Shown: positions 8,842-54,230 of the stretch, piece after piece
How positions within the stretch are numbered: position 1 is the stretch's first letter
Layout of the letters: each line of letters opens with the position of its first letter
Virus record (IMG/VR): IMGVR_UViG_3300045988_134250
Source: a virus
Lineage: Duplodnaviria > Heunggongvirae > Uroviricota > Caudoviricetes
DNA: 64,000 nucleotides
Strand: one strand, 5' to 3'
Notes under the pieces: generated by a model
Databases searched by the model: none
What the model was told of the DNA's origin: nothing
Seen by the model: the letters and a program-made list of their open reading frames with translations, nothing else
Program-made: the position numbers and the translations under genes

Positions 8842-10035
8842 TTATGCTTTTTTTACATACGCCATAAACATTTTTTCAGCATGTTCTTGTGGCGTTCCTG
8901 CCATGACAAGCGCATCAATAAACGCCTGCTTCTTCAGTGCGAACTGATCGGCCAGGCGTTGCTGAAGCTCCTTGTTTTTCTGTTTCTCACGTTGCAACGC
9001 CGCTTCTTTTGCTGCCGCCCGTTTTTTCTGTGCGTCTGACAACTTTCTGGCCTTGGTCAGTTGGTCACGTAGCTTGTCAATCTTGCCGTTGTCCTTTGCC
9101 AGTTTTGTGCTTAAAGCGGCCTGGCGCTTCTGATAGAGTCTCCATTCTCGCTTGGCAGCGTCAACGTTCGTTTTACTGCTACGATTGCGATTAAACTCCT
9201 TCTCGTCTTCTTTTGAGAAGTGTTTGGTTGTACGGCGGCGATCGTCACCAAATGCAATTTGCGTTGCAGCCTTTTGTAGTGCACGAGCAATACTCATTTG
9301 CCAACTTGCGGACTGTAACCGCGTCATTGAGTGGATCACGTGTTTACAGGCGACGCCTTGTAGCTTAGGGTTACGAACTTTTGGATAGGCGTATTCTTTT
9401 GGCGGGGCCAGGGCAAAGTTACCCGCAGTAGCGATGTAACGATACCAGTATTGATGACGACCACAGTCACAATCGAAAGACACTCGCCCGGCGCACAGTG
9501 ATTTAGTGATTTTGAGAGCTGATTTATCGTCTTCTGCGATGTCATCGACCATCTGATCCCATTCTTCAAAGCGTATCCGGACGATATGGTGCTGGTGGAC
9601 GGATATATCCGATGCTTCTACGCGGATATTAATCACGTTGTGGCGAAGAGATACGGGGGTAGCTCTTTTGATACCAGATCCGTCATCCACGGCGTTATTT
9701 GCACGCTTAATATCGATTGCCTGGCTGGATGCCACCAGCTGGGCGTATGTGATGCCAGCCGTCTTGCTGTCATATTTTTCGCGTGTTTTACTCCGTAGCT
9801 TTTCGAAACCTTTCAGGTCGTCTCGCGTGAAGAACGTGCCGCCTTTTTTCTTCCCTAACTTGAGAATATCTTCGGCGGATTTGTTCCTCAGTCTACCTGG
9901 CGTCAGCGTCCGGTGAGCTTGTCGGCGCTTACGGGTTTGTTCTTTCCTGATAAGCTCGAATATACGCGTGAAGTCCTTAGAGGACAGACCGTCAGTGATA
10001 TAGCGCCCGTCCTGGTTTTTCAGGAAATCAGGCAT
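8842..10035 (-). CDS. SWIM-type zinc-finger protein with lysine-rich coiled-coil C-terminus
   Basis: 397 aa; CxC-x(n)-CxH arrangement FDCDCGRHQ...GVACKHVIH; C-terminal K/R/E/Q-rich tail. Confidence 0.5.
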   Translation of the reverse strand: MPDFLKNQDGRYITDGLSSKDFTRIFELIRKEQTRKRRQAHRTLTPGRLRNKSAEDILKLGKKKGGTFFTRDDLKGFEKLRSKTREKYDSKTAGITYAQLVASSQAIDIKRANNAVDDGSGIKRATPVSLRHNVINIRVEASDISVHQHHIVRIRFEEWDQMVDDIAEDDKSALKITKSLCAGRVSFDCDCGRHQYWYRYIATAGNFALAPPKEYAYPKVRNPKLQGVACKHVIHSMTRLQSASWQMSIARALQKAATQIAFGDDRRRTTKHFSKEDEKEFNRNRSSKTNVDAAKREWRLYQKRQAALSTKLAKDNGKIDKLRDQLTKARKLSDAQKKRAAAKEAALQREKQKNKELQQRLADQFALKKQAFIDALVMAGTPQEHAEKMFMAYVKKA

Positions 10036-12644: not shown

Positions 12645-12952
12645 ACACCTTTAACCACGGAGATGCCGTTCCCTGCACGATAGCGGCGGGGAACGGAATT
12701 CTCCATCAGGTCACGAATTACTCCCGCCTCATGTAGTTCCTCTGTTTCCCAGTATCTGTTTGTCACCAGATCGAGGCTGGCTATGACCTTGTGCCGGTCA
12801 TTAGGCATAGCCAATTTTTCTGCTATAACCATCAGTGAAAACTCTTCATCCAGTAGGATTTGATACCAGACTTTTGACAGTTCCAACTCTCTAATGAGGG
12901 TGAAGCGCCGCTCAAGTGTGGCGGCAGAATAAGTGAAATCTATTTTTTTCAT
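12641..12952 (-). CDS. Hypothetical protein
   Basis: 103-aa ORF downstream of ant-like gene. Confidence 0.4.
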   Translation of the reverse strand: MKKIDFTYSAATLERRFTLIRELELSKVWYQILLDEEFSLMVIAEKLAMPNDRHKVIASLDLVTNRYWETEELHEAGVIRDLMENSVPRRYRAGNGISVVKGV

Positions 12953-13011
12953 CGTGCGGATAATCCGATTATTTGGCAGTTAAATCCCCGGCGTCGCCGG
13001 GGATGCAGCAT

Positions 13012-13953
13012 TTAACTAACAATCCAGTCCATAGCAATAACATCCTCTGGAGCTAAATCAATAGCATGGATTTTCCCGTCACGGATGGTGCGCCAGTGCT
13101 TTCGTGATCCACCTTCGGGCCACACCCATATACCTTCAGGCCAGGAAGAACGACGACACACTGTTGCGTATCCAGTCCTGATCTTCTCTCTGGCGGTATG
13201 TAGTGACAGATTATCCTTTGGGCTTTCAGGCACAGGATGGTGGATTGCCTGAAACATCCCCATCTTTGGATGATACCAGCGTTTATTGCGTGGTTCTGCC
13301 TCCGACATCACCTGCTTAAAGGCTTTCCGGAAGGGGGCAAGGGCCACAATGGAGCGTCGCGCAAGCAAGCCATCGGGGGTCAAAAACTCATGTGTATCGG
13401 TGGGAATCCGGTAAGCGTTGACAAGGTTACGGCATTTGGCTTCAGTCAGGCCACATTTCGCCGCCAGCTGGCGGTAGCCAATGTAGCCTTCCGGCATATT
13501 GCCTTTCTTGATTTGCTCAACGGTTTCAGCGACCCTGGACACTTGTGCCGATACCTCGGCTACCTGGGCATTTACGGCGTTGATCCGGCGTTCATGCTCA
13601 AGATGCATTTGCGCCATTTCAGCCAGGATTTCGGCTTTTGATTTTAACTGTACCCGGGCATTCTCCAGTTCGCGCCAGCGGTCCACCAGCCGGGCGGTAA
13701 ATTCGGGAGAGAGCTGCGCGACGACGACAATACTATCGCGCTTGCCTTGTTCGCCTTCGAAGAAATAGGCTTTTGTGTATTTATTAGGGCTAAGTGATTG
13801 ATTATTCTCAACTGTAGCCAATGGCGTATGTTGGATAACTCCTTTAGCAACAAGTCTTTCGATGCTGCGTTTAACATCAGAGTGACGACTTCCCACCAGT
13901 TCCGCGATCTCAATACTGGTCATTGTCGCTTTTTGAGAGATGGACAGATTCAT
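13012..13953 (-). CDS. ant: Antirepressor-like protein with Rha-type N-terminal domain
   Basis: 313 aa; N-terminal MTSIEIAELVGSRHSDVKRSIERL (Rha/phage regulatory HTH); start overlaps stop of icd-like ORF by 1 nt. Confidence 0.6.
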   Translation of the reverse strand: MNLSISQKATMTSIEIAELVGSRHSDVKRSIERLVAKGVIQHTPLATVENNQSLSPNKYTKAYFFEGEQGKRDSIVVVAQLSPEFTARLVDRWRELENARVQLKSKAEILAEMAQMHLEHERRINAVNAQVAEVSAQVSRVAETVEQIKKGNMPEGYIGYRQLAAKCGLTEAKCRNLVNAYRIPTDTHEFLTPDGLLARRSIVALAPFRKAFKQVMSEAEPRNKRWYHPKMGMFQAIHHPVPESPKDNLSLHTAREKIRTGYATVCRRSSWPEGIWVWPEGGSRKHWRTIRDGKIHAIDLAPEDVIAMDWIVS

Positions 13954-14168
13954 CAGTGCACCTCCACGCAGTTCATCGGCAGATTCCAGTAATTGAGGAT
14001 CTCCATCGCATCAAGAGTGAAGCGAGCAGCAAAAATGCAGGGTTCTTCGGGAAGGTATGAGCGCGCCTCTGCTTCGGTAGCAGCCATGACGCAGATATAC
14101 AGGTGTTTTTGGCAGGAATAGAAACGCCAGATAAATTCAGAATGAGTTGGGGTAGGGATAGTAGCCAT
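13953..14168 (-). CDS. icd: Icd-like small protein
   Basis: 71 aa; RBS aaggagg; conserved EFIWRF.S.QK...AATE.EARS shared with second copy at 53664-53888; coupled to ant. Confidence 0.5.
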   Translation of the reverse strand: MATIPTPTHSEFIWRFYSCQKHLYICVMAATEAEARSYLPEEPCIFAARFTLDAMEILNYWNLPMNCVEVH

Positions 14169-14480
14169 ATTGGCAGCCTCCTTTGACTAAGTTAAGGAGC
14201 TACCGCGTGAGGTTCCAATCTCAATGGCGGTAGCACTGACTGGGTTGGAACTACCGGCGTCAAAGGGAACCGGCCTGCCTTTCGGCAGCCCAGCCAGCAC
14301 TACCATTGATCTCTGAGCTAAACGCTAAGTATGGCTGTGCGATGGCATGACACAAAAAAAGACGCGTTCGGCGTCTGTGTCGCCTTTGACATTATCCGGG
14401 GTTCCAATCCCGGCACCCGTTTTTCTAAGGTGCCGTAGAAATATACCCCACGATAATGCCAGGGCGCAACAGTCAGTATT
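14169..14480 (-). ncRNA. Structured leader / candidate c4-like regulatory RNA region upstream of icd-ant
   Basis: Minus-strand RNA has element CCUUUGAC (plus 14259-14267) complementary to the icd SD region GUCAAAGGAGG (plus 14177-14187), several stem-loops, and an internal terminator. Confidence 0.3.
14354..14375 (-). terminator. Rho-independent terminator within the immI-like leader
   Basis: gacgc-gttcg-gcgtc hairpin (14361-14375) followed on the minus strand by a 7-U run (A-run 14354-14360 on plus). Confidence 0.5.
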
Positions 14481-14648
14481 TTATGCTTTGGCGGATTTCT
14501 TCCTGACTTGCTTGCAGGCGTAGGCCATTGCTTTAGCTTTCACTTCATCCAGCTTCCCGGTGATCACTTCTTTTCCGAGAGTGACAAACCAGTCATAGCA
14601 ACCGCCAGTAATGTTCTTGATTTGAAAGTTGAGGTAGCGAACAGTCAT
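14481..14648 (-). CDS. Small ORF (55 aa) in the immI-like leader
   Basis: ATG 14648 with RBS gggggtg; MTVRYLNFQIKNITGGCYDWFVTLGKEVITGKLDEVKAKAMAYACKQVRKKSAKA; not in ORF track (<60 aa). Confidence 0.3.
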   Translation of the reverse strand: MTVRYLNFQIKNITGGCYDWFVTLGKEVITGKLDEVKAKAMAYACKQVRKKSAKA

Positions 14649-14969
14649 TTTGACACCCCCGGCGCGAGCAAAGAATGCAGATTATCGCGTGAGTGGTGGA
14701 AGACGAGTGATGGGAAAAGACTGTAGTTGTTCATAGTGTTGTGACTCCTTGCTTTCGGAGCCGCCATCGACTGTTCCACGGTCTGGTGGCGGCGCAATAA
14801 AGGCTGGAACACCGTGAGTCAACGGGGGCTTTTCAGCCACCTATATTGCACCGCCATAGGTATGGCGGAGGCAATAATACGAAAAACTAAACAGTTTGTC
14901 TCAAAAAGTTGACCGGTGTGCCAATCGGTAGTGAATGTACATCGGAGAGTTTTTCAATTCAACTTAAAA

Positions 14970-14979
14970 TGTTAGAAAA
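14970..14979 (-). promoter_or_regulatory. TTTTCTAACA motif copy (candidate C1-type operator)
   Basis: plus tgttagaaaa; upstream of the immI-like module 1 leader on the minus strand. Confidence 0.45.
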
Positions 14980-15558
14980 CTAATTTATCAACTCAATCGC
15001 CATCTGATACAACGTCATTTCATCGGCATTGTGCCGCATGAAATCTGCTTTTCCGCCTATTTTTCCGTCAGCATGAACAGGGACCAGCCAGGGATATTGT
15101 TCTCTGACCTCGGCTGGCGCTGCGTACTGGTGGTGCCATTTACACAAAGGGAGGACATATTTATGCGCGTTCTCTGCCGTTCTCCCGAAGATATGGTGCA
15201 GGGATACCACTGGGCTATGTTGCCCGTGAATATGGCAGGCAATGCAGGGGAGAGCACCGATAGCGGTCTGTATCCGGCGTTCATCGGCTGTGAGTGATCT
15301 GCCTTTCAGGCCGCGTGACGTGCGTGTTTTTTTGGACGGAGCGGATACAGCTTTATCTTTTCTCCGCTGTTCATATTGCTTTGCTTTTTCAATTTTCTTT
15401 TGCCGATATTCAGGCGATGCGGCTTTTTCTCTCGCTCGCTGCTGCTGGCGTTGAGCTTGTTGAAGGCGCTTTGCCCTTTGTTCCTCTCGCCAGGCCGGGT
15501 CAGCCAATTTTTGCATGGCTTTTTGTCTCTGTTTCTCCCAATAACTCTGTTTCTGCAT
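14980..15558 (-). CDS. ref: Ref-like HNH nuclease with basic N-terminal domain
   Basis: 192 aa; K/R/Q-rich N-terminus, ADPAWREEQ, then Cys/His motif LPCIACHIHG...SLHHIFG...PLCKWHH, as in P1 Ref as recalled. Confidence 0.5.
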   Translation of the reverse strand: MQKQSYWEKQRQKAMQKLADPAWREEQRAKRLQQAQRQQQRAREKAASPEYRQKKIEKAKQYEQRRKDKAVSAPSKKTRTSRGLKGRSLTADERRIQTAIGALPCIACHIHGQHSPVVSLHHIFGRTAENAHKYVLPLCKWHHQYAAPAEVREQYPWLVPVHADGKIGGKADFMRHNADEMTLYQMAIELIN

Positions 15559-39527: not shown

Positions 39528-39603
39528 TGGTGGCCCCTACCGGACTTGAACCGGTGACCGTGCGATTATGAGTCGCCCGCTCTAACCACTGAGCTAAAGG
39601 GCC
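39528..39603 (-). tRNA. tRNA-Ile2 (anticodon CAU, ileX-like)
   Basis: GGCCCTTTAGCTCAGTGGTTAGAGCGGGCGACTCATAATCGCACGGTCACCGGTTCAAGTCCGGTAGGGGCCACCA; near-identical to E. coli ileX as recalled; encoded CCA. Confidence 0.8.
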
Positions 39604-40032
39604 AGATTACTGTTAATTACGCTTACGCTTTTTGCCAGAACCGCGTAAGGCTTTTGCCGCTTGCTCTACCCCGTATGCAACCACCAGCAGAAACAATAAT
39701 GTCCACTCCGGGTTTTTATCGGCAAACGCCCAAAAATCCATCACTTGCAGCCACCTTTTAAGACAAAACGCCATTGCTGTTAGGTTGCGGTGCCGGGCGC
39801 CTCCCGGTGACGTTAACCAGTTAACAATTAACGCCGGATCACTTATGGATTCTCGTTACGCCAGTAAAAAGACCACCTTTACTGTTTTAACTGTTCCGCG
39901 TGCGCTTAGCCGCATTCACCGCAATGGTAAGAGCATTTGGCTGACTGGGCGGCGATGACGCCTGTACGCATTTGGTGATCCGGTTCTGCTTCCGGCATTC
40001 GCTTAATTAGCCAAATACCCTTAATGTTGCAC

Positions 40033-40119
40033 TGGCGGAGAGTAATGGAATCGAACCATCATCGCTTGCGCAATGGGACGGTTTTCAAGACCGCTTGAGC
40101 ACCATGCTCCCTACTCTCC
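40033..40119 (-). tRNA. tRNA-Ser (anticodon UGA), type II
   Basis: Acceptor GGAGAGT/ACTCTCC, anticodon arm CGGTCTTGAAAACCG identical to E. coli serT, long variable arm, T-loop TTCGATT, CCA end. Confidence 0.7.
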
Positions 40120-40491
40120 CGTTATTGTGGCGACCGGTGCTGATCTCCGGCTTGCGGTTATTTCAGACTCTCACGGGCGTTTAATTGCCCCGCCGAACAG
40201 CTCTTTTCCGCAATAGCTGCAATGTCTTTCGCGCATCAGCCTGCGCATTCACCACAATGTTGAGAACACTGGTTGTCACGCTGCAACGCAACATTTATTC
40301 GTAGATTGGGATATGACCCCGTTACGCCAGTGTTCTCAACGTTGTAGTGCCGGTTACGGTTCCGGCCAGACCTCTTCCTCAACGGGGTGTTCTCCATACG
40401 GACTACCGTTTATTGGTCGTTCCTGCGGTTTATGTTGTGAAGCCAGATGCTTATCTTCTGGTTGCTTCAAAGAGCTGCACTTCATCACAAC

Positions 40492-40565
40492 GGTAAGAGC
40501 ATTTATGGCTCGCATCGCGGGAAAAAGCCCACGGTAGAGAGTCGAACTCTACAAATGCTCTTACC
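40492..40565. repeat. 13-bp perfect inverted repeat enclosing a tRNA 3'-half-like element
   Basis: ggtaagagcattt (40492-40504) / aaatgctcttacc (40553-40565); on the minus strand the loop reads GTAGAG-TTCGACT-CTCTAC-CGTGGGC-TTTTT (T-arm plus acceptor-like 7-mer plus U-run); related copy at 39926-39938. Confidence 0.5.
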
Positions 40566-40573
40566 TGTTGTGT

Positions 40574-40649
40574 TGGTGCCGGTTAACGGGATCGAACCGC
40601 TGACCATTCGCTTACAAAGCGACTGCTCTACCAACTGAGCTAAACCGGC
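40574..40649 (-). tRNA. tRNA-Thr (anticodon UGU)
   Basis: GCCGGTTTAGCTCAGTTGGTAGAGCAGTCGCTTTGTAAGCGAATGGTCAGCGGTTCGATCCCGTTAACCGGCACCA. Confidence 0.8.
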
Positions 40650-40653
40650 AATT

Positions 40654-40740
40654 TGGTGGGGAGTGATGGAGTCGAACCACCCGAGTCGCAATGACAGTAG
40701 ATTTACAGTCTACCCCGCTACCCCTACGGACTAACTCCCC
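40654..40740 (-). tRNA. tRNA-Tyr (anticodon GUA), type II
   Basis: Acceptor GGGGAGT/ACTCCCC; anticodon arm GTAGACTGTAAATCTAC (E. coli tyrT: CAGACTGTAAATCTG); long variable arm; TTCGACT T-loop; CCA. Confidence 0.75.
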
Positions 40741-40745
40741 TAAAT

Positions 40746-40820
40746 TGGCGATGGTGGGTGGATTCGAACCACCGACCAGTTGGTTAACAGCCAACTGCTC
40801 TACCGCTGAGCTACACCATC
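40746..40820 (-). tRNA. tRNA-Asn (anticodon GUU)
   Basis: GATGGTGTAGCTCAGCGGTAGAGCAGTTGGCTGTTAACCAACTGGTCGGTGGTTCGAATCCACCCACCATCGCCA. Confidence 0.8.
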
Positions 40821-45253: not shown

Positions 45254-48200
45254 TTAGGCCGCATCGGCGATTATTTTACGCAGTTCATCTACCGAGTAAC
45301 GCGTAGATACCATCCATGCAGGACGGTCAAAGTTCACATCAGCAACCGGGTTTGCTTCAAAATTCCAGAAACGTCCGCCAATCTTCTTAATCGCGTCTTT
45401 GGCGTTCCGTATTGTCGAGGAACCTGGTTGGTCGGCAATGAGATAAACCGCGCCAACGTCCTCGCTGACGCTCCACCAGCGCCCGCGAACACGCGCCTTA
45501 GCGCGAATCGGCTTATCATTAACCACAATGATATAGTCATCATTCGCCGCTTCATCAGCTCTGGCTTCAGCCACTGCCGCCTGCTCTTCTCTTTTGCTTT
45601 CAGCCTGCTCAAGCCTTTCCGCGATCTCTGATTCAGTGGCCCCGCCGTTTTTCAGCGATACATAGTCCTGCCACGTTGCCGATTTGAGCGTATCCGGCAA
45701 CTCATTCACATAGTCGCCGTCTTTCAACTCACGGGCGCGGCGGGTAGCCATTTCTACCAGGCGATTAACAGAAACAGCATCAGCAAAATCGTCCTTACTA
45801 ATGTGTTTTTCATCAAATGCATTGATGACAGCCCCCACCTTAATCCACTGTGCTGCCGGTGATTCCAGGGGGTTATCAGCCTGAACAATGGCGAGTTTCG
45901 CTCCATCTACCCCATTATTCGCCAGCTGTTCCAATGCCGCCCATCCATCTGCATCACTGAGTGATTTATATTGCTCAAACAATGCATCGCGCCAGGCCAC
46001 CAGCGCAGAACGTGTTTTTTCGATCTTCGCCTTAATTTTCGCGATCTTGACCTGATTAAACATCCGTTCAATATCATCGATATTGCTAAAGGCTTTCATC
46101 CTGCCCTGGAATAAACGGTATGCCAGCACGGTCCTCCAGAATGATTCCAGACCTTCTCCGGACGGTTTGCGGAACAAGCTAAGAATATCTTCAGAAGTGA
46201 CTTTATTAAGCGAACGACCTGACAGACCACGCCCAGCCATCCAGTTTTCGAACTCATGGGCAACATCATCCATCGTTGCCTGTGCGCCCCATGCCTGCAT
46301 TCCCTGGGTGTAATCATACCCATACAATGCCTGGAGGAATCCCTCGCCGTCCACGATATTCAGCGGGTTATCACTGGCTTGTATTTTTGCCACTTCACGC
46401 TTCAGCGCCTCGTCGTTGCCATCAGGATATATCCATCGCTCAGGTGCTATATCCGATGCTCGCCCGATTTTTTGGCCTATCACGCCATCATAGGCCGATG
46501 ACAGCGCGATCTGACCATCATCTGTGCGATATGCCCAGTATTTAATAGCTGACCCACCGCCCCATGCATTACCAGGTTTACCAGCAATAACATTCATTAC
46601 CCCATTGCGAATAGCATCATAGAACTGATCGCGAGTAAGTATTGTTGATAGCTGGTGGCACTGAACACCACGCGCAGCCGTTGCGCGCGATTCAGCTACC
46701 CCCTCTTCAAAAGTTACCGCTTCAATCACAGAGTCAAACGGCAATGTAACGATTGACCCCGGTGCTCGAGCGTAACGACTTGCTCTATCCAGCCAGGCGA
46801 TACGGCAGAGGTATTGTGCTTTTTCACCGTCAATTTTTTCCACCCGGACAATCGCTGTTGTTTCGCGATCATCAATGACTGCACGGTAATAACTACCTTT
46901 ATGCAACAGGATATTCTTGTCAGTGCGCATATATTCCTGTGGGTTCTGAATAACATCGATACTGATATCCAGCACACCAGACTTAATAGCGCGCTCCACA
47001 TCACCACGAGAGCGTTTCATTATGGTATCCGCGTCTTTTGCCCTGGTGATCGCAAACCGCAGCACCCGCGCACGTTTTCTGTAGCTACTCAACTGCTCAA
47101 GCGCGTATTTTTGCCCATTCCTGTTCGTACCCGCTTTTATCAGGTCGTCAAGATTGCGCTGGTAATACTCTATCTGTTCCATCGCGCTTTTCAGTTCTGT
47201 CTCCATCATGCCGATATCTTTTCCGGCGGCGTTTGCCGCTTTCAGGTAGATATCGAGAGCATTGTTGGCCTCGCGCTGTGCTTTCAGTTTCAGACGTTCT
47301 TCACGCTCTTGCGCCTGGCGAGCCATGATTGCGCGGCGTTCTTCCGGGTTTGCCGCCAGCATAATGGCGCGTTCATCAGCATCATCCGCATCACCATTGG
47401 CGATCTCTGACATGTCGGATGTCATCACCATCTTGATCCAGTCTTTCTTACGTTTCAGCGTATCCAGACGGAAGTCGTCGAATGTGCCTTTGCCACAATA
47501 GTAGTGAACATTGACCTTTTCTTGCGGTGAACCTACGCGCGCACCGCGCCCATTTCGTTGGTCGATACTGGCTGGTGTCCAGGGTAGTGTCAGGTGGTGG
47601 ATATCGGTTGTCCCGATGTGCAGGTTAATACCTACTTCAGCCTTCTTGTTACAGATTATGATGCGCGTGCGACCTTCGTTATAGTCGGCGGCAATACCTT
47701 CCATGCCCTCAAGGCCAGCATCATTTTTAGCGGAGAGATAATCCTCATATTGGGCAAGTTTGCTGTAGTAGGTTTCCCATGCCCCTTCTTTGTATTCACC
47801 GTTTTTGTTTGGAGTAGGTTCGGTCGGCTTATTCACCTTCTTCAGCTTGATGCCACCAGCCTGGCTAACTGTCGTCGCATTGATAATGCCAATCTCCTGC
47901 TCCGGCATTTGCAGTGCACTGGCGATAATACGGCGCAGCTTCTGGTGCTGGGCTTTTTCATCAATAAAGACGATCTGCTTACCGTTCTTCAGACCTTCAC
48001 GAAGATTTTCGATCAGCGCGGCATACTTCGGCGGGATGGGGTGCGACACCTGCTGCATATCAATGCCGGCAGCCGCAATGGCCTTCAGTATTTCAGCTTC
48101 CAGTTCAATGCTGGCACGTATTTCAACATGCGTCGGATGTTCACTAAAAGCGGTCTTCACTACCTTGCTGGTACGCGTACTGACCAGCCCGCCAGCGCCG

Positions 48201-51200
48201 TCTTCCTCGGCCTCATCAACATCATCTGCCACTTTACCGCCAGCTACTTTTGGCAAGGCATCAGCAATAGCTTTTACCTGGTCTGCAAGCTCAACGGGGA
48301 ACTGGAATGTAATCGCACTGGCATACAGATCCGGGTCTATAGCAACCTTATCCATGTCACGGATGATGGAGAAGATGAAATCATCCGGTTTGTCGTTAGT
48401 GATATGCCCGTTTTCATCGACTGTCAGCTCATCATTGCGACTTAACTCCTGAGCACGCTTACGAAGCTCTTCATAAGCAGTCTCCTGCTCCCCTGTCATC
48501 GGGATCTGCAAGGTGTTCTCGATGATGTCGGGAATTTTAACCGTCGCTCCGACATCTGCAGCAGTCTTCAGAGTGGTCCAACGATGGAAAATACCACGCA
48601 GGCCGTCAAGGTTCTGGAAGCCCACCAGCCCCTGCTTCTCTTCCACTTCCCCGGAAATTTTCTGGACCTGAACTGTGGCTGTTTTGCCAAACACACGAAC
48701 GAAATCATCAGGCGTAATGATGCCCATACGCATCCACTCTTCCTGCGGAATGACAGTAGACAGCATGTTGAAGGCATCAATCGGACTGTTCACCAGCGGT
48801 GTTGCCGTCAGCATGACTACACCACGCCCGTTGTTGCGTTTCATCATGTACGCAGCTTTTACAGCCATGTCGCGGGCCATCTTGGATACTGCCGGGTTAG
48901 GCAAATATGCCAGTTGTCCCGCTTCACGCCCGGCATTAAAGGAGTTGCGGTAGTTATGCCCCTCGTCGGCAATCACGCTATCGAAGTTCATATCCTCAAA
49001 GTAAGGGATATTCTGCTTCTTCGTTGTACCGGTATTCGCGGCCTGATCCTTAATCTTGTTCTTCTTCTGCGCATCACGGTGTTTACCGGACGCCAGGTCA
49101 AGACGCCCCATTTCCACAGCATTAAAGACAGCTTGCTGTGAGTTCTCCTCGATGGTTTTTTCTCGTAGCGGGATAGACGCGAATTGTTCTTTTGTCATGA
49201 TGACCGTTCGCCAATTTGACGACGGGATCATGTTCATACGCTGAACGATAACGGCGCTGGAGGACTCTTTCACAACATTTCTGGTAAGAGGCTGCCCGTT
49301 ACTGTCGAGGCGTGGTTCGCCATTTTCATCAAGCACCGGCGCGGTCAGAATATTTCCGCTGTCATCACGAACTTCATCCAAACCGATAAACATCATATTG
49401 GCGAAGGCATCAGCACTGTAGAAACTCTGTGCCTCGTGATACCAGTTCTGATAAACCGCCTTCGGAACAACAATACACGTGCGTTTAGTGCGACCTGTTT
49501 CGAAGTTATACGCCTCAAGCGCAAGCGCGGTCGTGGTTTTACCCAGCCCGGTACCAAATCCCATGATGCCACGCCCATCTTCTGACAAGCGCCGAACTTC
49601 TTCATTCTGATAAGTCAGAGGAATGCGCTTTCCACTAATCCCTTCCAGGCCAAGCGGTGCGTCAGAATGTGTGAACGGAATGAAACCATTGAATGCGTCG
49701 TTATAGTCACGGGCTATCTGATCCGCCTGCGGGTGGGTGCGTAACCAGTCGTTAAAGCTAACTTCCAGTTGAGCAATTTTATCCAGGTACTCGTTAGCGT
49801 TCTGCCCACGCGGTTTAACACCGTTCAGGTAGTTTTCTAACTGGTTCAGGAAGCCGTCTTTATTGTTGGCCTTCTTGAACTCATTCCCGTTTTTGCCGTT
49901 TACGGTTCGTAGCTGATAGCCGGTAAATACCCCGTCCTTACCTTCGTAATCGTCCGGAGATACCAGAATGCCATCGACGACCTTCAGATCAGGTTCAGTG
50001 TACTTAAACTCGTCATAGCCCTGCTCTGCCAGGAACTCTTTTATCAAGCGGCGATCCAGCCAGCGGGCATTCAGATTAACGGTGACTTTATTTAGTGGCG
50101 TGAAAATGCGTTTCTCTTCGATTTTCGCCAACTGACGCTCAAAGTTCGCTTTCTGCTCACCTGTTGACGCATCACGCCAGCCCACCAGCAGTGCTGTTTT
50201 GGTTGCAACATCGCCGCTGGTGGCGCGGTCCATCGGCAGCAGACAGCCATACCCATCAATAGCGATATCATCAAATTTCGCCAGGTATTCAAGGACCGCG
50301 TCGTCGTCCTCTGGCAGTTCACCAGCAAACGCCTCACGAAAGTCGCCCAGCGTTATAGGATTAAGGGCTACATCACTAAAAAGATGTGCTATCACTTGTT
50401 CAGGACGCGTAAAGTCAATACCGGCAGCACCATCCGTTACATCAAGTCGCCCTGCCAGAAGGTCAGAAGTGGAACCATCCTGTTTCACATTGCCAGTGAA
50501 CGTCATCCAGTTTTTAGCGCCAGCTTCAGCAAGCCCATTCAGCTTAATCGCGTGCGGTGGTCCATACTTCGCAACTTCTGCTGCCGCCAAGCGGGATGCA
50601 TCTGCCAGTTTGTCATCAACGTTCACCCCCAGGTTACGCAAATCAAGTGCCTTGTTGATCAACTGACCTATCAGTGCACCGCGCATAACGCGCTCCCTGT
50701 CTTTTTCTCGCTGCTTGCCAGCAAAGCGAATCATTGCTGCCACTTCATCACTGACAACCGATGGATAGTCGGACGCGATCGCCGATATCTGGTCCCATGA
50801 CAAAGCCAGAATCCCGTTTGTTGACTGGAACGCGATCTGCAGATCGCCAAACGTCGAAACACCATATCGACTTACATCAAGCGCGGAGGATTTGGTTGTC
50901 GTGTCCTGAACCCATTTCAGACCATCAAACTCATGCCAGATACCGCCTACAAGGCGTTTATCGCCCACTTTCGCGCCCTGCCATGCCTGAGTAGTTACGC
51001 CGAGCAAATCCCAATTGATGCGACTATCAAAGCGACGAGATAGCGCGGTTTTCATCGACTCATTGGATACACGACCGTCTTTTTTCACCACTAGGGTATT
51101 GCGGAAGCTGGTACGTTCCATGTCGCCGTAAACAAATCGCTTCCCTTCGGTTGTAAACCATTTCCCTTTGAGGAAGGTAACCCAAAGGACGTTTGCCGAT

Positions 51201-52090
51201 TTGAGCGTCGAATCATCCGTATCGGGGATCATCTCCAGGAAGGCTTCCGGGTGTTTACGCAATACCCATACGTCCACCACGGTATCTGTACCTGATTCAC
51301 TGAACGTACCGGAAGGCATACGATGCGCGCCCAAAAATTCCGCTTTACGGCTGACTTTATCGCGCAATTTTTTGTATTTCGTACCATCAGTCATGCCATT
51401 CGGCACCACCAATACGATAAGCCCACCAGGTTTAACCTTGTCGATCGTGCGCAGCACAAAGTAATTGCCAACGTTCTTCTCGTTTGCATATGCCGGATCA
51501 AGCCCTGCAACGCCGGAACGGCCTTCGCCAAACGGTACGTTACCAACAGCGTGGTCATACATTGCGTCTTTCGCCGCCAGAGCCTCAAACGCCCCAATGT
51601 TCACATCGTCTTCCGGGTGCAACAGCTGGTTGATTCGACCGGAGATCGGAGACAGCTCGGCGCTGGTCATTATCATTCCCTGCCGTTTTGTCTCCTGGAA
51701 AATACCCGTGCCAGCTGATGGTTCCAGTACGTGACCGCCATCAATACCGTAGTCAGCAAACAGCTCCCATATACCTTCAGCCATAAACTGTGGCGTGTAG
51801 TATTCGTATTGGCTGCCCTCACCATCTGTCAGGCCGCCTTCACCGGTATACCCAGCAAGAATCTGACGTTGTTCGTCAGTTAATTTCGCCCCATCGAAGC
51901 CGGGCGGAAGGGAATTAAGAAGATTTACTGCGGCATTGTTTGCTGCCCGGCGTGTTTTCTGAATACTGACGCCATCGGCTTTCCTGACGCCAAAGGTCGC
52001 AACAGCACGTAATTTATGCAACCGACTAACAATTTCAATCAGTTCGCCTAAGCTGGAGGCTTCACTGATTGAATGAAGTAGTTTGTCCAA
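45254..52090 (-). CDS. darB: DarB-like giant antirestriction protein: N6-adenine methyltransferase fused to SF2 helicase
   Basis: 2278 aa (P1 DarB ~2255 aa as recalled); N-terminal MTase motifs VLEPSAGTGIF and NVPFG; helicase Walker A GTGLGKTT and DEGHNYRN box. Confidence 0.75.
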   Translation of the reverse strand: MDKLLHSISEASSLGELIEIVSRLHKLRAVATFGVRKADGVSIQKTRRAANNAAVNLLNSLPPGFDGAKLTDEQRQILAGYTGEGGLTDGEGSQYEYYTPQFMAEGIWELFADYGIDGGHVLEPSAGTGIFQETKRQGMIMTSAELSPISGRINQLLHPEDDVNIGAFEALAAKDAMYDHAVGNVPFGEGRSGVAGLDPAYANEKNVGNYFVLRTIDKVKPGGLIVLVVPNGMTDGTKYKKLRDKVSRKAEFLGAHRMPSGTFSESGTDTVVDVWVLRKHPEAFLEMIPDTDDSTLKSANVLWVTFLKGKWFTTEGKRFVYGDMERTSFRNTLVVKKDGRVSNESMKTALSRRFDSRINWDLLGVTTQAWQGAKVGDKRLVGGIWHEFDGLKWVQDTTTKSSALDVSRYGVSTFGDLQIAFQSTNGILALSWDQISAIASDYPSVVSDEVAAMIRFAGKQREKDRERVMRGALIGQLINKALDLRNLGVNVDDKLADASRLAAAEVAKYGPPHAIKLNGLAEAGAKNWMTFTGNVKQDGSTSDLLAGRLDVTDGAAGIDFTRPEQVIAHLFSDVALNPITLGDFREAFAGELPEDDDAVLEYLAKFDDIAIDGYGCLLPMDRATSGDVATKTALLVGWRDASTGEQKANFERQLAKIEEKRIFTPLNKVTVNLNARWLDRRLIKEFLAEQGYDEFKYTEPDLKVVDGILVSPDDYEGKDGVFTGYQLRTVNGKNGNEFKKANNKDGFLNQLENYLNGVKPRGQNANEYLDKIAQLEVSFNDWLRTHPQADQIARDYNDAFNGFIPFTHSDAPLGLEGISGKRIPLTYQNEEVRRLSEDGRGIMGFGTGLGKTTTALALEAYNFETGRTKRTCIVVPKAVYQNWYHEAQSFYSADAFANMMFIGLDEVRDDSGNILTAPVLDENGEPRLDSNGQPLTRNVVKESSSAVIVQRMNMIPSSNWRTVIMTKEQFASIPLREKTIEENSQQAVFNAVEMGRLDLASGKHRDAQKKNKIKDQAANTGTTKKQNIPYFEDMNFDSVIADEGHNYRNSFNAGREAGQLAYLPNPAVSKMARDMAVKAAYMMKRNNGRGVVMLTATPLVNSPIDAFNMLSTVIPQEEWMRMGIITPDDFVRVFGKTATVQVQKISGEVEEKQGLVGFQNLDGLRGIFHRWTTLKTAADVGATVKIPDIIENTLQIPMTGEQETAYEELRKRAQELSRNDELTVDENGHITNDKPDDFIFSIIRDMDKVAIDPDLYASAITFQFPVELADQVKAIADALPKVAGGKVADDVDEAEEDGAGGLVSTRTSKVVKTAFSEHPTHVEIRASIELEAEILKAIAAAGIDMQQVSHPIPPKYAALIENLREGLKNGKQIVFIDEKAQHQKLRRIIASALQMPEQEIGIINATTVSQAGGIKLKKVNKPTEPTPNKNGEYKEGAWETYYSKLAQYEDYLSAKNDAGLEGMEGIAADYNEGRTRIIICNKKAEVGINLHIGTTDIHHLTLPWTPASIDQRNGRGARVGSPQEKVNVHYYCGKGTFDDFRLDTLKRKKDWIKMVMTSDMSEIANGDADDADERAIMLAANPEERRAIMARQAQEREERLKLKAQREANNALDIYLKAANAAGKDIGMMETELKSAMEQIEYYQRNLDDLIKAGTNRNGQKYALEQLSSYRKRARVLRFAITRAKDADTIMKRSRGDVERAIKSGVLDISIDVIQNPQEYMRTDKNILLHKGSYYRAVIDDRETTAIVRVEKIDGEKAQYLCRIAWLDRASRYARAPGSIVTLPFDSVIEAVTFEEGVAESRATAARGVQCHQLSTILTRDQFYDAIRNGVMNVIAGKPGNAWGGGSAIKYWAYRTDDGQIALSSAYDGVIGQKIGRASDIAPERWIYPDGNDEALKREVAKIQASDNPLNIVDGEGFLQALYGYDYTQGMQAWGAQATMDDVAHEFENWMAGRGLSGRSLNKVTSEDILSLFRKPSGEGLESFWRTVLAYRLFQGRMKAFSNIDDIERMFNQVKIAKIKAKIEKTRSALVAWRDALFEQYKSLSDADGWAALEQLANNGVDGAKLAIVQADNPLESPAAQWIKVGAVINAFDEKHISKDDFADAVSVNRLVEMATRRARELKDGDYVNELPDTLKSATWQDYVSLKNGGATESEIAERLEQAESKREEQAAVAEARADEAANDDYIIVVNDKPIRAKARVRGRWWSVSEDVGAVYLIADQPGSSTIRNAKDAIKKIGGRFWNFEANPVADVNFDRPAWMVSTRYSVDELRKIIADAA

Positions 52091-52759: not shown

Positions 52760-52957
52760 TCAAGTCACGATCCAATCATTACCGACTATATCAGCCGTCG
52801 ATAAATCAACTTCCCGGATCTGGAGTCCATTAATACAAAACCATCCGGTAGTAGAGTAATTATCAGGCCAGGCCCATACACCAACACTCCATGCTTTACG
52901 GCGGCACACTTCAGCCTGTCCTTCCCTGATTTTTTTTACCGCCTGCATGATGTCCAT
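52760..52957 (-). CDS. Ant C-terminal-domain homolog as separate coupled ORF
   Basis: 65 aa from ATG 52957 (TGATG overlap with upstream stop); CRRKAWSVGVWAWPDN...IVGNDWIVT parallels Ant-1 C-terminus CRRSSWPEGIWVWPEG...VIAMDWIVS. Confidence 0.5.
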   Translation of the reverse strand: MDIMQAVKKIREGQAEVCRRKAWSVGVWAWPDNYSTTGWFCINGLQIREVDLSTADIVGNDWIVT

Positions 52958-53664
52958 CACTCACCTCCCCAACCGATCACCTGGAATTGCCCCATTTTGG
53001 GGTGATACCAGCGTTTTCCTCGGTGTTCAGCCTCCGACATCATCCGGTTAAAAGCATTCATGAAGGGAGATAAGGCCACGATGGAACGACGCGACAATAC
53101 CCCCTCTGGAGTCAAAAACTCATGTGTATCGGTGGGAATCCGGTAAGCGTTGACAAGGTTTCGGCATTTGGCTTCAGTCAGGCCGCATTTCGCCGCCAAC
53201 TGGCGGTAGCCAATGTAGCCTTCCGGAATATTGCCTTTCTTTATTTGCTCGACGGTTTCAGCGACCTGGCTAACCTTTGACTCAACAGCATGAATCAGCT
53301 TTTGCTGCTGAACTGCATTCGCAGCCATTGCAGCGATCATCTCTATTTCGGTCAACGGCTGGCGTACTTGTTCTTCCAGTTCGCGCCAGCGGTCCACCAG
53401 CCGGGCGGTGAATTCGGGAGAGAGCTGCGCGACGACAATGATGCTGTCTCGTTTGCCTTGCTCGCCTTCGAAGACGTAAGCCTCAACGCCACGACGCAAT
53501 CCTAAGTTATTGATTTTTTCGAAAACAGCCATTGGCGGTTTTCGGATAATGCTTCGAGCAACCATACGCTCAATACTACGTTTAACGTCAGAGTGTTGGC
53601 TTCCCACCAGCTCCGCAATCTCAATGCTGGTCATTGATAGTTTTTCGAGAATGCAGATACCCAT
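52957..53664 (-). CDS. ant: Antirepressor-like protein (Rha-type N-terminal domain), copy 2, lacking fused C-terminal domain
   Basis: 235 aa; MTSIEIAELVGSQHSDVKRSIERM...; C-terminal region near-identical to Ant-1 residues ~190-260. Confidence 0.6.
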   Translation of the reverse strand: MGICILEKLSMTSIEIAELVGSQHSDVKRSIERMVARSIIRKPPMAVFEKINNLGLRRGVEAYVFEGEQGKRDSIIVVAQLSPEFTARLVDRWRELEEQVRQPLTEIEMIAAMAANAVQQQKLIHAVESKVSQVAETVEQIKKGNIPEGYIGYRQLAAKCGLTEAKCRNLVNAYRIPTDTHEFLTPEGVLSRRSIVALSPFMNAFNRMMSEAEHRGKRWYHPKMGQFQVIGWGGE

Positions 53665-53888
53665 CAGTGAGCCTCCGCAATGCCGGGATTGGTAATATTG
53701 CGATACCAGGGATTAGTGTTTGGTTGTGGGGAAGTAGAGAAACGACCAGTAAGAACACCATGCTGATCAGGGATCAGAGAACGGGCTTCTTTTTCGGTTG
53801 CGGCAATTGCGAAGTGATCGCAGCGTTTTTGCAGGGAGTGGAAACGCCAGATGAATTCTGGACGTGAGCAAGGATTGGCATTAACCAT
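53664..53888 (-). CDS. icd: Icd-like small protein, copy 2
   Basis: 74 aa; EFIWRFHSLQK...AATEKEARS; coupled to ant. Confidence 0.5.
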   Translation of the reverse strand: MVNANPCSRPEFIWRFHSLQKRCDHFAIAATEKEARSLIPDQHGVLTGRFSTSPQPNTNPWYRNITNPGIAEAH

Positions 53889-54230
53889 AGTTACGGCCTC
53901 ACTAACAGGTTTAACAACCTGCCACCCGCTGTCAAACAGGTGGCAGGACGTGACAGGGTTGACAGACTGGCGTTAGTGAAACCAGCAGGCCGAAGCCTCC
54001 CCATCACGCCCCACCATAATTCGGGCGTAACGCGGTTTACGGACACAAAAATACCGCAATATCGGAAATCTGCGGTTGTCCGCACTAACATTCAGGCTGT
54101 CAAACCCGGTCGCAGAATTTGCTACGACGGCATGAATATAAGCCTGAAAACATGGAAGATCAACTAAAAATTTCAGCAATGGATGACTTCAGTCGATGAT
54201 GCAGATCATACATTCCGTTTTAGAAACAGC
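53889..54230 (-). ncRNA. Structured leader / candidate c4-like regulatory RNA region, copy 2
   Basis: Minus-strand RNA has UCACUAAC (plus 53972-53979) complementary to SD region GUUAGUGAGG (plus 53897-53906) plus 9-bp stem cctgccacc/ggtggcagg (53918-53947). Confidence 0.3.

Follow-up and report, generated by a model that had tools for sequence, protein, structure and literature searches.

How is the icd-antirepressor operon of a D6-like phage-plasmid kept silent, and which RNA is responsible? The question is raised by the IMG/VR virus record IMGVR_UViG_3300045988_134250 (Caudoviricetes), a stretch of 64,000 nt that is called the window here, at its full length. On the minus strand, where all window features described below are located, an icd-like gene is followed by a gene for an antirepressor-like protein (Ant). 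Upstream of icd, the original prediction had picked out an 8-nt element complementary to the Shine-Dalgarno (SD) region of that gene, and proposed that the locus is controlled by a c4-type antisense RNA, as in the immI regions of phages P1 and P7, but with a different specificity. We refer to this locus as module 1, to distinguish it from a second, P1-type module elsewhere in the window (module 2, 52760-54180).

The proposal is supported by the results described below. Module 1 is a phage immunity cassette of an ordinary and already catalogued kind, where the antisense RNA, C4, masks the ribosome-binding site (RBS) of the icd-antirepressor operon, and its host replicon is a common, well-sampled D6-like Escherichia coli phage-plasmid. 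It is also likely that the cassette represents the IsrK subtype of C4-type antisense immunity and gates the operon of this phage-plasmid in that capacity. The gene identities, the icd/ant overlap, membership in both RNA families, all six recognition elements and their covariation come directly from the present analysis.

C4 and IsrK-like RNAs in the leader

When the whole window was scanned with Rfam at gathering thresholds, the C4 antisense RNA family (RF01695) matched positions 14223-14310 with 77.1 bits (gathering score 45; model positions 1-87 of 87; E = 2.4e-13), over the very element, CCUUUGAC, that had been singled out earlier. The 88-nt segment has a minimum free energy (MFE) of -46.5 kcal/mol (z = -5.0), bearing out the stem-loops previously noted in the leader, and the MFE structure reproduces the family fold, with a 17-bp closing stem followed at the 3' end by GCCA, a first hairpin, a second hairpin and a single-stranded junction. 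The 12-nt loop of the second hairpin presents CCUUUGAC (14266-14259), which is the b' element of C4, and the junction carries the a' element (GUUCCAA, 14251-14245). The anti-SD element is thus real; what did not survive is its picture as a simple leader hairpin, because it forms the b' loop of a discrete structured RNA. By comparison with the annotated 77-nt c4 of P1 (NC_005856), the ends of mature C4 are predicted to lie near 14304 and 14226.

Both C4 elements have complementary sites downstream. The b2 element (GUCAAAGG, 14187-14180) is 79 nt from b', can form 8 bp with it, and overlaps the SD AAGGAGG (14183-14177), so that the two together span 14177-14187; b2 runs into the SD, 11 nt before the icd AUG at 14168. 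The complementarity between leader and icd SD is real, and, like it, all sequence elements named in the original prediction lie at the positions given there or no more than a few bases away. The a2 element (UUGGAAC, 14212-14218) follows C4 on its 3' side, can form 7 bp with a', and sits in the loop of a hairpin made by the 3' strand of C4 and GCGGUAGC (14206-14199). Upstream of C4 the same two elements occur again, as a1 (UUGGAAC, 14407-14401) and b1 (GUCAAAGG, 14390-14383), and the 10-mer GAUUGGAACC that surrounds a2 (14220-14211) is identical at a1. The second pair, a':a2, and the upstream duplicates a1 and b1 are additions to the earlier account.

The upstream duplicates are part of a second family member. 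The 5' part of the leader (14355-14433) matches the IsrK-type small RNA (sRNA) family RF01394 with 61.3 bits (gathering score 50; model positions 1-77 of 77), and consists, in order, of hairpin 1, hairpin 2 with a1 in its loop, a single-stranded linker with b1, and an intrinsic terminator. The c4-a1b1 family (RF03163) also aligns to this segment, with 22.4 bits and E = 0.0017, which is short of its gathering score. The terminator (14354-14376; stem AGACGC-CGAAC-GCGUCU at 14376-14360 and U7 tract at 14360-14354) was found by the terminator scan and matches the terminator hairpin of the isrK model. It had been recognized in the original prediction, but is more than an attenuator within a long leader, because an IsrK-family sRNA ends with it. 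Conservation across relatives extends to the terminator, to the a1-loop hairpin and to b1.

A putative sigma-70 promoter (14440-14469) directly precedes this RNA, with a -35 element TTGCGC (14469-14464), an 18-nt spacer, a -10 element TATATT (14445-14440) and 6 nt to the start. The predicted +1, G14433, is the first position of the isrK model match. The geometry is kept in all lineages of relatives despite sequence differences (-35 TTGnnn, 17-18 nt, -10 TAnnnT, then 6-7 nt to the isrK-like RNA), and the prophage Gifsy-1 has the layout TTGACA-17-TATATT-6-+1. A generic sigma-70 consensus scan of 13900-15100 did not list the proposed promoter, whose -35 element matches at only 3/6 positions. Another minus-strand match of that scan, at 14902-14874, is of a kind found at background frequency and was set aside, the conserved geometry being relied on instead.

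The leader had been put at about 800 nt, and this figure does not hold. A leader of about 265 nt (14433-14169) is indicated by the promoter geometry, by the start of the isrK model match at 14433, by the boundary at 14434 at which similarity to RCS47, JL22 and lambdoid relatives starts, and by a conserved gene immediately upstream. This gene (14481-14648) encodes a 55-aa phage protein that matches phrog_7786 over its full length (E = 2.7e-42) and corresponds to D6 orf85. The assignment of 14480-14980 to the leader was rejected on the strength of the phrog_7786 gene, the promoter and the homology boundary, although read-through from the upstream genes into the leader may occur. In phage D6 an opposite-strand gene, orf84, is annotated over the isrK and C4 region, where the D6 GenBank record annotates no RNA; orf84 is probably spurious.

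Chance complementarity and covariation

Could the complementarity between b' and the icd SD region be fortuitous? A perfect complement of at least 8 nt to the 24 nt before the AUG was also present in 302/5000 dinucleotide shuffles of the leader (p ~0.06). The 8-nt match by itself is thus only marginally unusual and makes a weak argument. Because this shuffle test of a single 8-mer is not significant alone, the case rests on covariation. The full recognition pattern is another matter, and is not due to chance: the composite UUGGAAC-N(5-35)-GUCAAAGG occurs at exactly 3 sites in the 64 kb, namely a1b1, a2b2 and the reverse complement of b'a', and at 0 sites in shuffles.

Relatives were collected by an IMG/VR pattern scan for a conserved SD-icd start, which yielded 120 stretches; with the loci already fetched there were 125 leaders, 83 of them unique. 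These 83 contain 16 alleles of a' and 12 of b', in 28 combinations. For the covariation alignment one representative was taken for each distinct element set (n = 34), a choice of distinct sets that inflates diversity but not pairing. Among the 34 variants, the three C4 helices are paired in 100%, 99.4% and 100% of cells, with 8, 5 and 2 pairs, respectively, changed on both sides. The b'-b2 helix is paired in 100% of cells, with 5/8 pairs changed on both sides, and a'-a2 in 97.5%, with 6/7 pairs so changed. For the upstream duplicates, which have letters at a1/b1 in 31/34 variants, the values are 98.6% for a1-a' (6/7 pairs changed on both sides) and 98.8% for b1-b' (6/8 pairs). When the 3' partners were slid by 1-3 columns as a control, pairing fell to 29-48%, and the observed covariation score was reached by 0/500 shuffles. 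This is strong comparative evidence, from aligned sequences, that all four intermolecular or long-range pairings are under selection.

The idea of a chance complementarity without function, which can point to the p value of ~0.06 for the single 8-mer, is negligible in view of the Rfam scores, the six elements in canonical order, the count of 3 versus 0 for the composite pattern and the near-perfect covariation in 34 variants; the covariation data refute it.

The covariation also bears on the way in which the anti-SD element was first framed. In a leader acting only in cis, CCUUUGAC would fold onto the SD of its own transcript, with no discrete processed RNA and no immunity in trans. Such intramolecular pairing is geometrically possible, and the D6/RCS47 clade does have an extra, local anti-SD hairpin, in which UCCUU (14198-14194) pairs with AAGGA (14183-14179) and the 5' part of b2 is in the loop. 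The CUCCUU-type anti-SD is present in this clade and in one other contig only, and is absent from most relatives. However, b' occupies the loop of a very stable, independently folding and co-varying domain, and the duplicated targets and the diversity of alleles at two elements fit specificity in trans. In addition, the family RNA is known to be processed, to 77 nt in P1 according to the annotation and to ~80 nt in Salmonella (PMC4825925). A leader acting solely in cis is thus highly improbable, and was rejected on the covariation and on the family's known processed RNA.

Proposed mechanism and the P1 and Gifsy-1 paradigms

In P1, c4 acts as an RNA and its precursor is cleaved by RNase P, and ribosome occlusion and polarity are known from work on this phage. 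Module 1 follows the P1/P7 immI plan element by element, as had been proposed. The order a1, b1, c4, a2, b2/SD, icd, ant on one transcript is that of the P1 annotation (NC_005856), and so is the spacing, with a2 3 nt after c4 and b2 about 10 nt before the icd AUG. Module 1 also shares with P1 and P7 the C4 fold, two short recognition elements and the location of b2 at the icd RBS, and specificity is defined by changes of the a and b alleles, as between P1 and P7. There are nevertheless several differences from P1. The alleles are UUGGAAC/GUCAAAGG rather than UUGACAG/GUUAGUG, and module 1 adjoins ref, not sim. A strong intrinsic terminator closes its a1b1 segment, which matches isrK, whereas the P1 and P7 leaders match c4-a1b1 without an isrK match at the gathering level.

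The genes under control are readily recognized. The icd-like gene (13953-14168, 71 aa) matches NCBIfam NF033153 (phage_ICD_like) with 49.4 bits, against a cut-off of 25, and phrog_1426 with E = 3.7e-41, which confirms its earlier identification; its product is 63% identical to P1 Icd. The following gene (13012-13953) encodes a 313-aa protein with an N-terminal Rha domain (Pfam PF09669, Phage_pRha, 32.7 bits; cut-off 29.9) that falls in PHROG 63, 'anti-repressor Ant' (E = 2.5e-62), and its D6 ortholog, only ~86% identical, is likewise annotated as anti-repressor Ant. As in P1, the icd stop overlaps the ant start; the stop and the ant ATG share one base (UGAUG). The Rha-domain assignment and the overlap of the two genes thus agree with the original prediction. 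The translational coupling of icd to ant that was also part of it is suggested by the overlap, and ant has its own GGAGG at 13965-13961, 7 nt before the ATG.

These features lead to the following model. Transcription would begin near 14433, from the promoter at 14469-14440, and many transcripts would end at the terminator (14376-14354), giving an IsrK-like RNA of ~79 nt that displays a1 in a loop and b1 in the linker. Transcripts that read through would contain C4, which is probably excised as a stable RNA of ~79 nt, as the P1 annotation and the RNase P background suggest. On the icd-ant mRNA, C4 would then bind b2 through its b' loop and a2 through its a' junction. With the 5' half of the icd SD buried in the b':b2 duplex, icd would be left untranslated. 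By the ribosome occlusion and polarity known from P1, Ant would then not be made either, because its start overlaps the icd stop, and the prophage repressor would stay active. The upstream segment, in which a2 and b2 are exactly duplicated as a1 and b1, would compete for C4 both in cis and in trans. In cis this would happen on the read-through transcript, where the full-leader MFE structure contains the helices a1:a' and b1:b'; in trans, the short terminated RNA would act as a decoy, as modelled on the Gifsy-1 work. The balance between short RNA and C4 would set whether Icd and Ant are made.

The Salmonella prophage Gifsy-1 (NC_010392) provides the experimental counterpart of the upstream segment. 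In the 273-nt gap before the antirepressor-like gene STM2616/anrP, Rfam places isrK at 34316-34240; the same segment matches c4-a1b1 with 48.1 bits, above gathering, and C4 follows with 69 bits at 34214-34131. A promoter, an IsrK of ~77 nt with a1, b1 and a terminator, then C4, a2/b2 and an antirepressor-like gene thus occur in the same arrangement as in module 1, with the alleles a = UUGGCGU and b about AUCACCG. The 45-codon orf45 of Gifsy-1 runs from the invariant AUG of the C4 closing stem to a UGA that overlaps the anrP AUG, and an open reading frame (ORF) runs through C4 from the same AUG in module 1. There is no icd in Gifsy-1, where C4/orf45 abuts anrP directly, whereas in module 1 icd and a Rha-type Ant of unrelated sequence come after the orf45-like ORF.

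Published experiments on Gifsy-1 fit this correspondence. Single mutations at G28, G31, C162 and C159 raise the basal translation of anrP, and the compensatory pairs G28A/C162U and G31A/C159U restore silence (PMC4825925). Numbered from the isrK +1, G28 and G31 fall in a1 (UUGGCGU) and C162 and C159 in a' (ACGCCAA), so that the compensatory mutants map exactly onto a1:a' pairs; they prove for Gifsy-1 the very cis a1:a' helix that is predicted for module 1. In trans, the short IsrK switches on translation of the read-through mRNA, and a processed RNA of ~80 nt, 'STnc1160', is detected in Salmonella (PMC4825925). STnc1160 lies within the C4 segment and is most simply C4 itself. Gifsy-1 IsrK is the a1b1 element of a C4 cassette, with orf45 reading through C4, and therefore the experimental properties of IsrK (its terminated and read-through isoforms, activation in trans by the short one and the cis a1:a' helix of the silent form) bear directly on module 1. 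Two Rfam families, isrK and c4-a1b1, and two literatures describe one element. The published Gifsy-1 model places the regulated RBS at orf45 and names neither C4 nor P1, comparing IsrK instead with the seqA/CI system of phage P4, where seqA is a structural homolog of IsrK (PMC4825925), and a 2025 review has IsrK and c4 as separate entries. The P4 CI RNA (seqA/seqC) does resemble C4 in being a processed structured RNA with complementary sites on either side of it in its transcript, but acts by premature transcription termination rather than RBS occlusion (PMC4825925). P4-type genes appear to be absent here, although no search was aimed at them.

How much of the Gifsy-1 behaviour should be carried over to module 1? 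In a purely P1-type form of repression, the a1b1 segment and the terminator would only attenuate transcription and aid folding and processing of the precursor in cis, with no role in trans. P1 itself has a1 and b1 without a gathering-level isrK match, its immunity is said to have been explained without a decoy sRNA by Citron and Schuster in 1990, and the cis pairing of a1b1 with a'b' in the full-leader MFE structure is what such a role would look like. However, the predicted affinity of a1/b1 for C4 equals that of a2/b2, and the terminator, the a1-loop hairpin and b1 have been conserved, with a1/b1 co-varying with C4 across relatives. In addition, the homologous short RNA of Gifsy-1 acts in trans, and mutations in a1 abolish its activity (PMC4825925). 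Repression of the pure P1 type is hence rather unlikely for module 1.

The ORF through C4 suggests yet another form of control. In module 1 it has 39 codons (14306-14187), starts at the invariant AUG of the closing stem, is in frame with icd and ends with a UAG just 5' of b2. Its translation could open the structure and deliver ribosomes to icd, in which case the pairing would control the start of this ORF and not the icd SD. All 83 unique leaders keep this frame, which is invariably that of icd, open over 37 codons or more, compared with 20/83 and 13/83 for the other two; the 45 codons of Gifsy-1 orf45 are translated and are required for expression of anrP (PMC4825925). On the other hand, no SD precedes the C4 AUG in the window, and P1 and module 2 have an early stop in the frame. 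The AUG-to-AUG distance is 138 nt in 81/83 leaders, and the shared frame may simply follow from constraints on RNA length. The action of P1 c4 as an RNA also speaks against this form of control, and the covariation of b' with b2 at the icd SD would be left without an explanation. The amino acid sequence, as has been reported, is not conserved (PMC4825925). Because of the near-invariant 138-nt spacing and the early stops in P1 and module 2, we treat translation of the leader ORF as a minority alternative, of low probability.

Control by C4 at the icd RBS, with the a1b1 RNA as competitor, is therefore retained as the preferred reading, and several points weigh against it besides the marginal significance of the isolated 8-nt match. 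The main uncertainty is that the two paradigms differ: C4 of P1 blocks the icd RBS, whereas in Gifsy-1, which has no icd, the regulated RBS is assigned to the ORF through C4. Module 1 combines features of both, with a strong SD overlapped by b2 and a 39-codon ORF through C4. Folding does not separate the models, since the mean unpaired probability over the region from b2 to the AUG is 0.31-0.47 for the full, IsrK-less and processed RNAs, and no strong sequestration of the SD is predicted unless C4 acts in trans. The promoter, the read-through fraction, C4 processing and action in trans are presumptive for this replicon. So is the target of Ant, which is assigned by analogy: BLASTP finds no similarity of module 1 Ant to P1 Ant1 (E = 0.2), and Ant is unrelated to Gifsy-1 AnrP by the same comparison (E = 0.86). 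Lastly, no repressor operator was found at the module 1 promoter. In contrast to P1, the P1-type C1 operator ATTGCTCTAATAAATTT, with up to 3 mismatches allowed, has 0 matches anywhere in the 64-kb window, and 15-mers shared between the promoter regions of the two modules are chance-level matches only. Repeats were looked for within 14420-15000 and none were found, and an operator look-alike in module 2, ATTGCTGAAATTTTTAG, has a single occurrence.

Alleles, the second module and the host replicon

The claim of a distinct specificity is borne out by the alleles. Module 1 (a UUGGAAC, b GUCAAAGG) differs from P1 and from module 2 of the window, which share a UUGACAG and b GUUAGUG, from P7 (a UUAGCAG, b GAUUGUG), and from the orthologous module of D6 (a UUGAGAC, b GCAAAAGG), in which each element is the same in all three copies and the b' allele is CCUUUUGC. 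Other combinations occur in the second module of RCS47 (a UUGAGAC, b GUCAAAGG) and in phiP27 (a UUGGAAC, b GCUCAAGG). The module 1 pair is not unique, as it recurs in five other IMG/VR contigs, and D6-like contigs (those with a ref-orf85-leader-icd-ant context) have 3/4 of the a x b combinations; the fourth is additionally found among P1-like contigs.

Predicted duplex energies agree with the allele differences. Module 1 C4 on its cognate target gives -12.7 kcal/mol at b and -8.5 kcal/mol at a, and the predicted affinity of module 1 C4 for a1/b1 is the same as for a2/b2. The values drop to -6.0 and -2.8 kcal/mol (b and a, respectively) on the module 2 target and to -6.5 and -4.7 kcal/mol on the D6 target, and module 2 C4 on the module 1 target gives -2.8 and -3.5 kcal/mol. 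This contrast between cognate and non-cognate duplexes is about equal to that of the classical heteroimmune pair P1/P7. Module 1 is thus predicted to be RNA-orthogonal to the P1-type module 2, and differs from the D6 module at both elements.

Module 2 has a second C4 and a c4-a1b1 match, at 54141-53936 (Rfam), in a leader that is 96.9% identical to P1 immI and has the a' and b' of P1 c4 unchanged. The 235-aa Ant of module 2 is nevertheless a paralog of module 1 Ant (67% identical), not of P1 Ant. A single replicon therefore has two RNA-orthogonal cassettes that drive paralogous antirepressors.

The two Ant proteins differ in layout. In module 1 Ant, the N-terminal Rha domain is followed by a middle part paralogous to module 2 Ant and by a fused C-terminal phrog_7385 segment (residues 252-312). 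These last ~60 residues (13012-13200; E = 1e-14) correspond to a separate 66-aa ORF in module 2 (52760-52960), which overlaps the ant stop and is 40% identical to the C-terminus of module 1 Ant (E = 2e-19). The free-standing ORF has a sub-threshold, full-length Pfam match to Tad2-like (Thoeris anti-defence 2; E = 0.034, 15 bits against a cut-off of 25), and a Pfam search with the C-terminal 82 aa of module 1 Ant gave no match. The phrog_7385 part could be an accessory domain that is fused in one module and split in the other. Directly downstream of module 2, a 2278-aa ORF (45254-52090) with methyltransferase-like and helicase-like motifs looks, by eye, like a DarB-like defence-against-restriction protein.

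As a unit, the RNA cassette behaves as if portable, with different cargo attached to it. A mosaic joint is visible in the P1-like phage RCS47, whose second cassette (2501-2915), between pacB and c1, matches window positions 14434-14020. From the isrK +1 (14434) to a point two-thirds into icd (14020) the two are 88.9% identical, and 94.9% in the leader alone; beyond the joint, RCS47 runs into a different ant.

The replicon itself is familiar. The 2.1-kb region of module 1 is 100% identical to E. coli plasmid NZ_CP035876.1 and matches 456 plasmids in PLSDB. Phage D6 (NC_050154) is 91% identical over the 2.1 kb and 93.5% in the leader alone, and is annotated there with Ref, orf86, orf85, Icd-like, Ant and a pmgF-like gene. 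The locus is orthologous, with the same gene order (ref, orf86, orf85, leader, icd, ant, pmgF-like), and pYU39_89 is another D6-like plasmid prophage. On this comparison the cassette is a bona fide member of the Rfam C4 and isrK families, an ortholog of the D6 orf83-orf82 region and an allelic variant of it. An ImmI-like region with c4, icd and antirepressor, along with a second c4/icd region, has already been stated for D6-like plasmids (PMC6799933), and adjacent 'isrK' and 'C4 antisense RNA' features are annotated in at least one GenBank Stx-phage record.

For the window itself the cassette is of little consequence, being a routine component of a common phage-plasmid and already accounted for by two Rfam families and in published comments on D6-like elements. 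Its practical value is in annotation and in the prediction of immunity groups, since the a and b alleles should predict which related phages are able, and which unable, to derepress each other's antirepressors. A wider by-product is that IsrK/orf45/STnc1160 of Salmonella and a1b1/c4 of P1 become the same cassette, which unifies the two literatures. The identification of IsrK with a1b1 and of orf45/STnc1160 with C4, the combinatorial a x b alleles that phage-plasmids have in common with lambdoid prophages, and the presence on one replicon of two orthogonal cassettes for paralogous antirepressors are general points that are not tied to this window.

A more ambitious reading is possible, if on balance doubtful. 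C4 cassettes might constitute a combinatorial, two-key RNA immunity code with at least 16 a and 12 b alleles, common to D6-like and P1-like phage-plasmids and to integrated lambdoid prophages (Stx, SfV, phiP27 and Gifsy-1). The terminated a1b1 RNA of the IsrK subtype would then serve as a diffusible anti-antisense, able to derepress any co-resident cassette with matching alleles, and a prophage could thereby be triggered by another. The C4 segment would double as an antisense RNA, once processed, and as a leader ORF that is translated in the frame of icd. With two orthogonal cassettes in this replicon, each of the paralogous antirepressors could answer to a different phage, whether incoming or resident.

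A few minor features complete the description of the region. The terminator scan listed no minus-strand terminator after ant. A GC-rich hairpin found by eye (CCCCGGC-GAC-GCCGGGG, 12987-13003), located 9 nt after the ant stop and followed by AUUUAA, is a possible weak terminator ending the operon, although its U tract is too short for the scan. Elsewhere in the window there is a cluster of five tRNA genes (Met, Ser, Thr, Tyr and Asn; 39528-40820), of which tRNA-Ser (40033-40119) is an ARAGORN match that is absent from the Rfam listing at gathering thresholds. Between ref and the cassette, two small overlapping ORFs (14481-14812) correspond to D6 orf86/orf85; one is the 55-aa ORF already mentioned, and the other is short and ends at 14645. 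A 21-nt near-repeat, with 1-2 mismatches per 15-mer, connects the 3' end of the former (14486-14506) with a site about 4.6 kb away (9870-9890), also on the minus strand, and could be a paralogous gene fragment.

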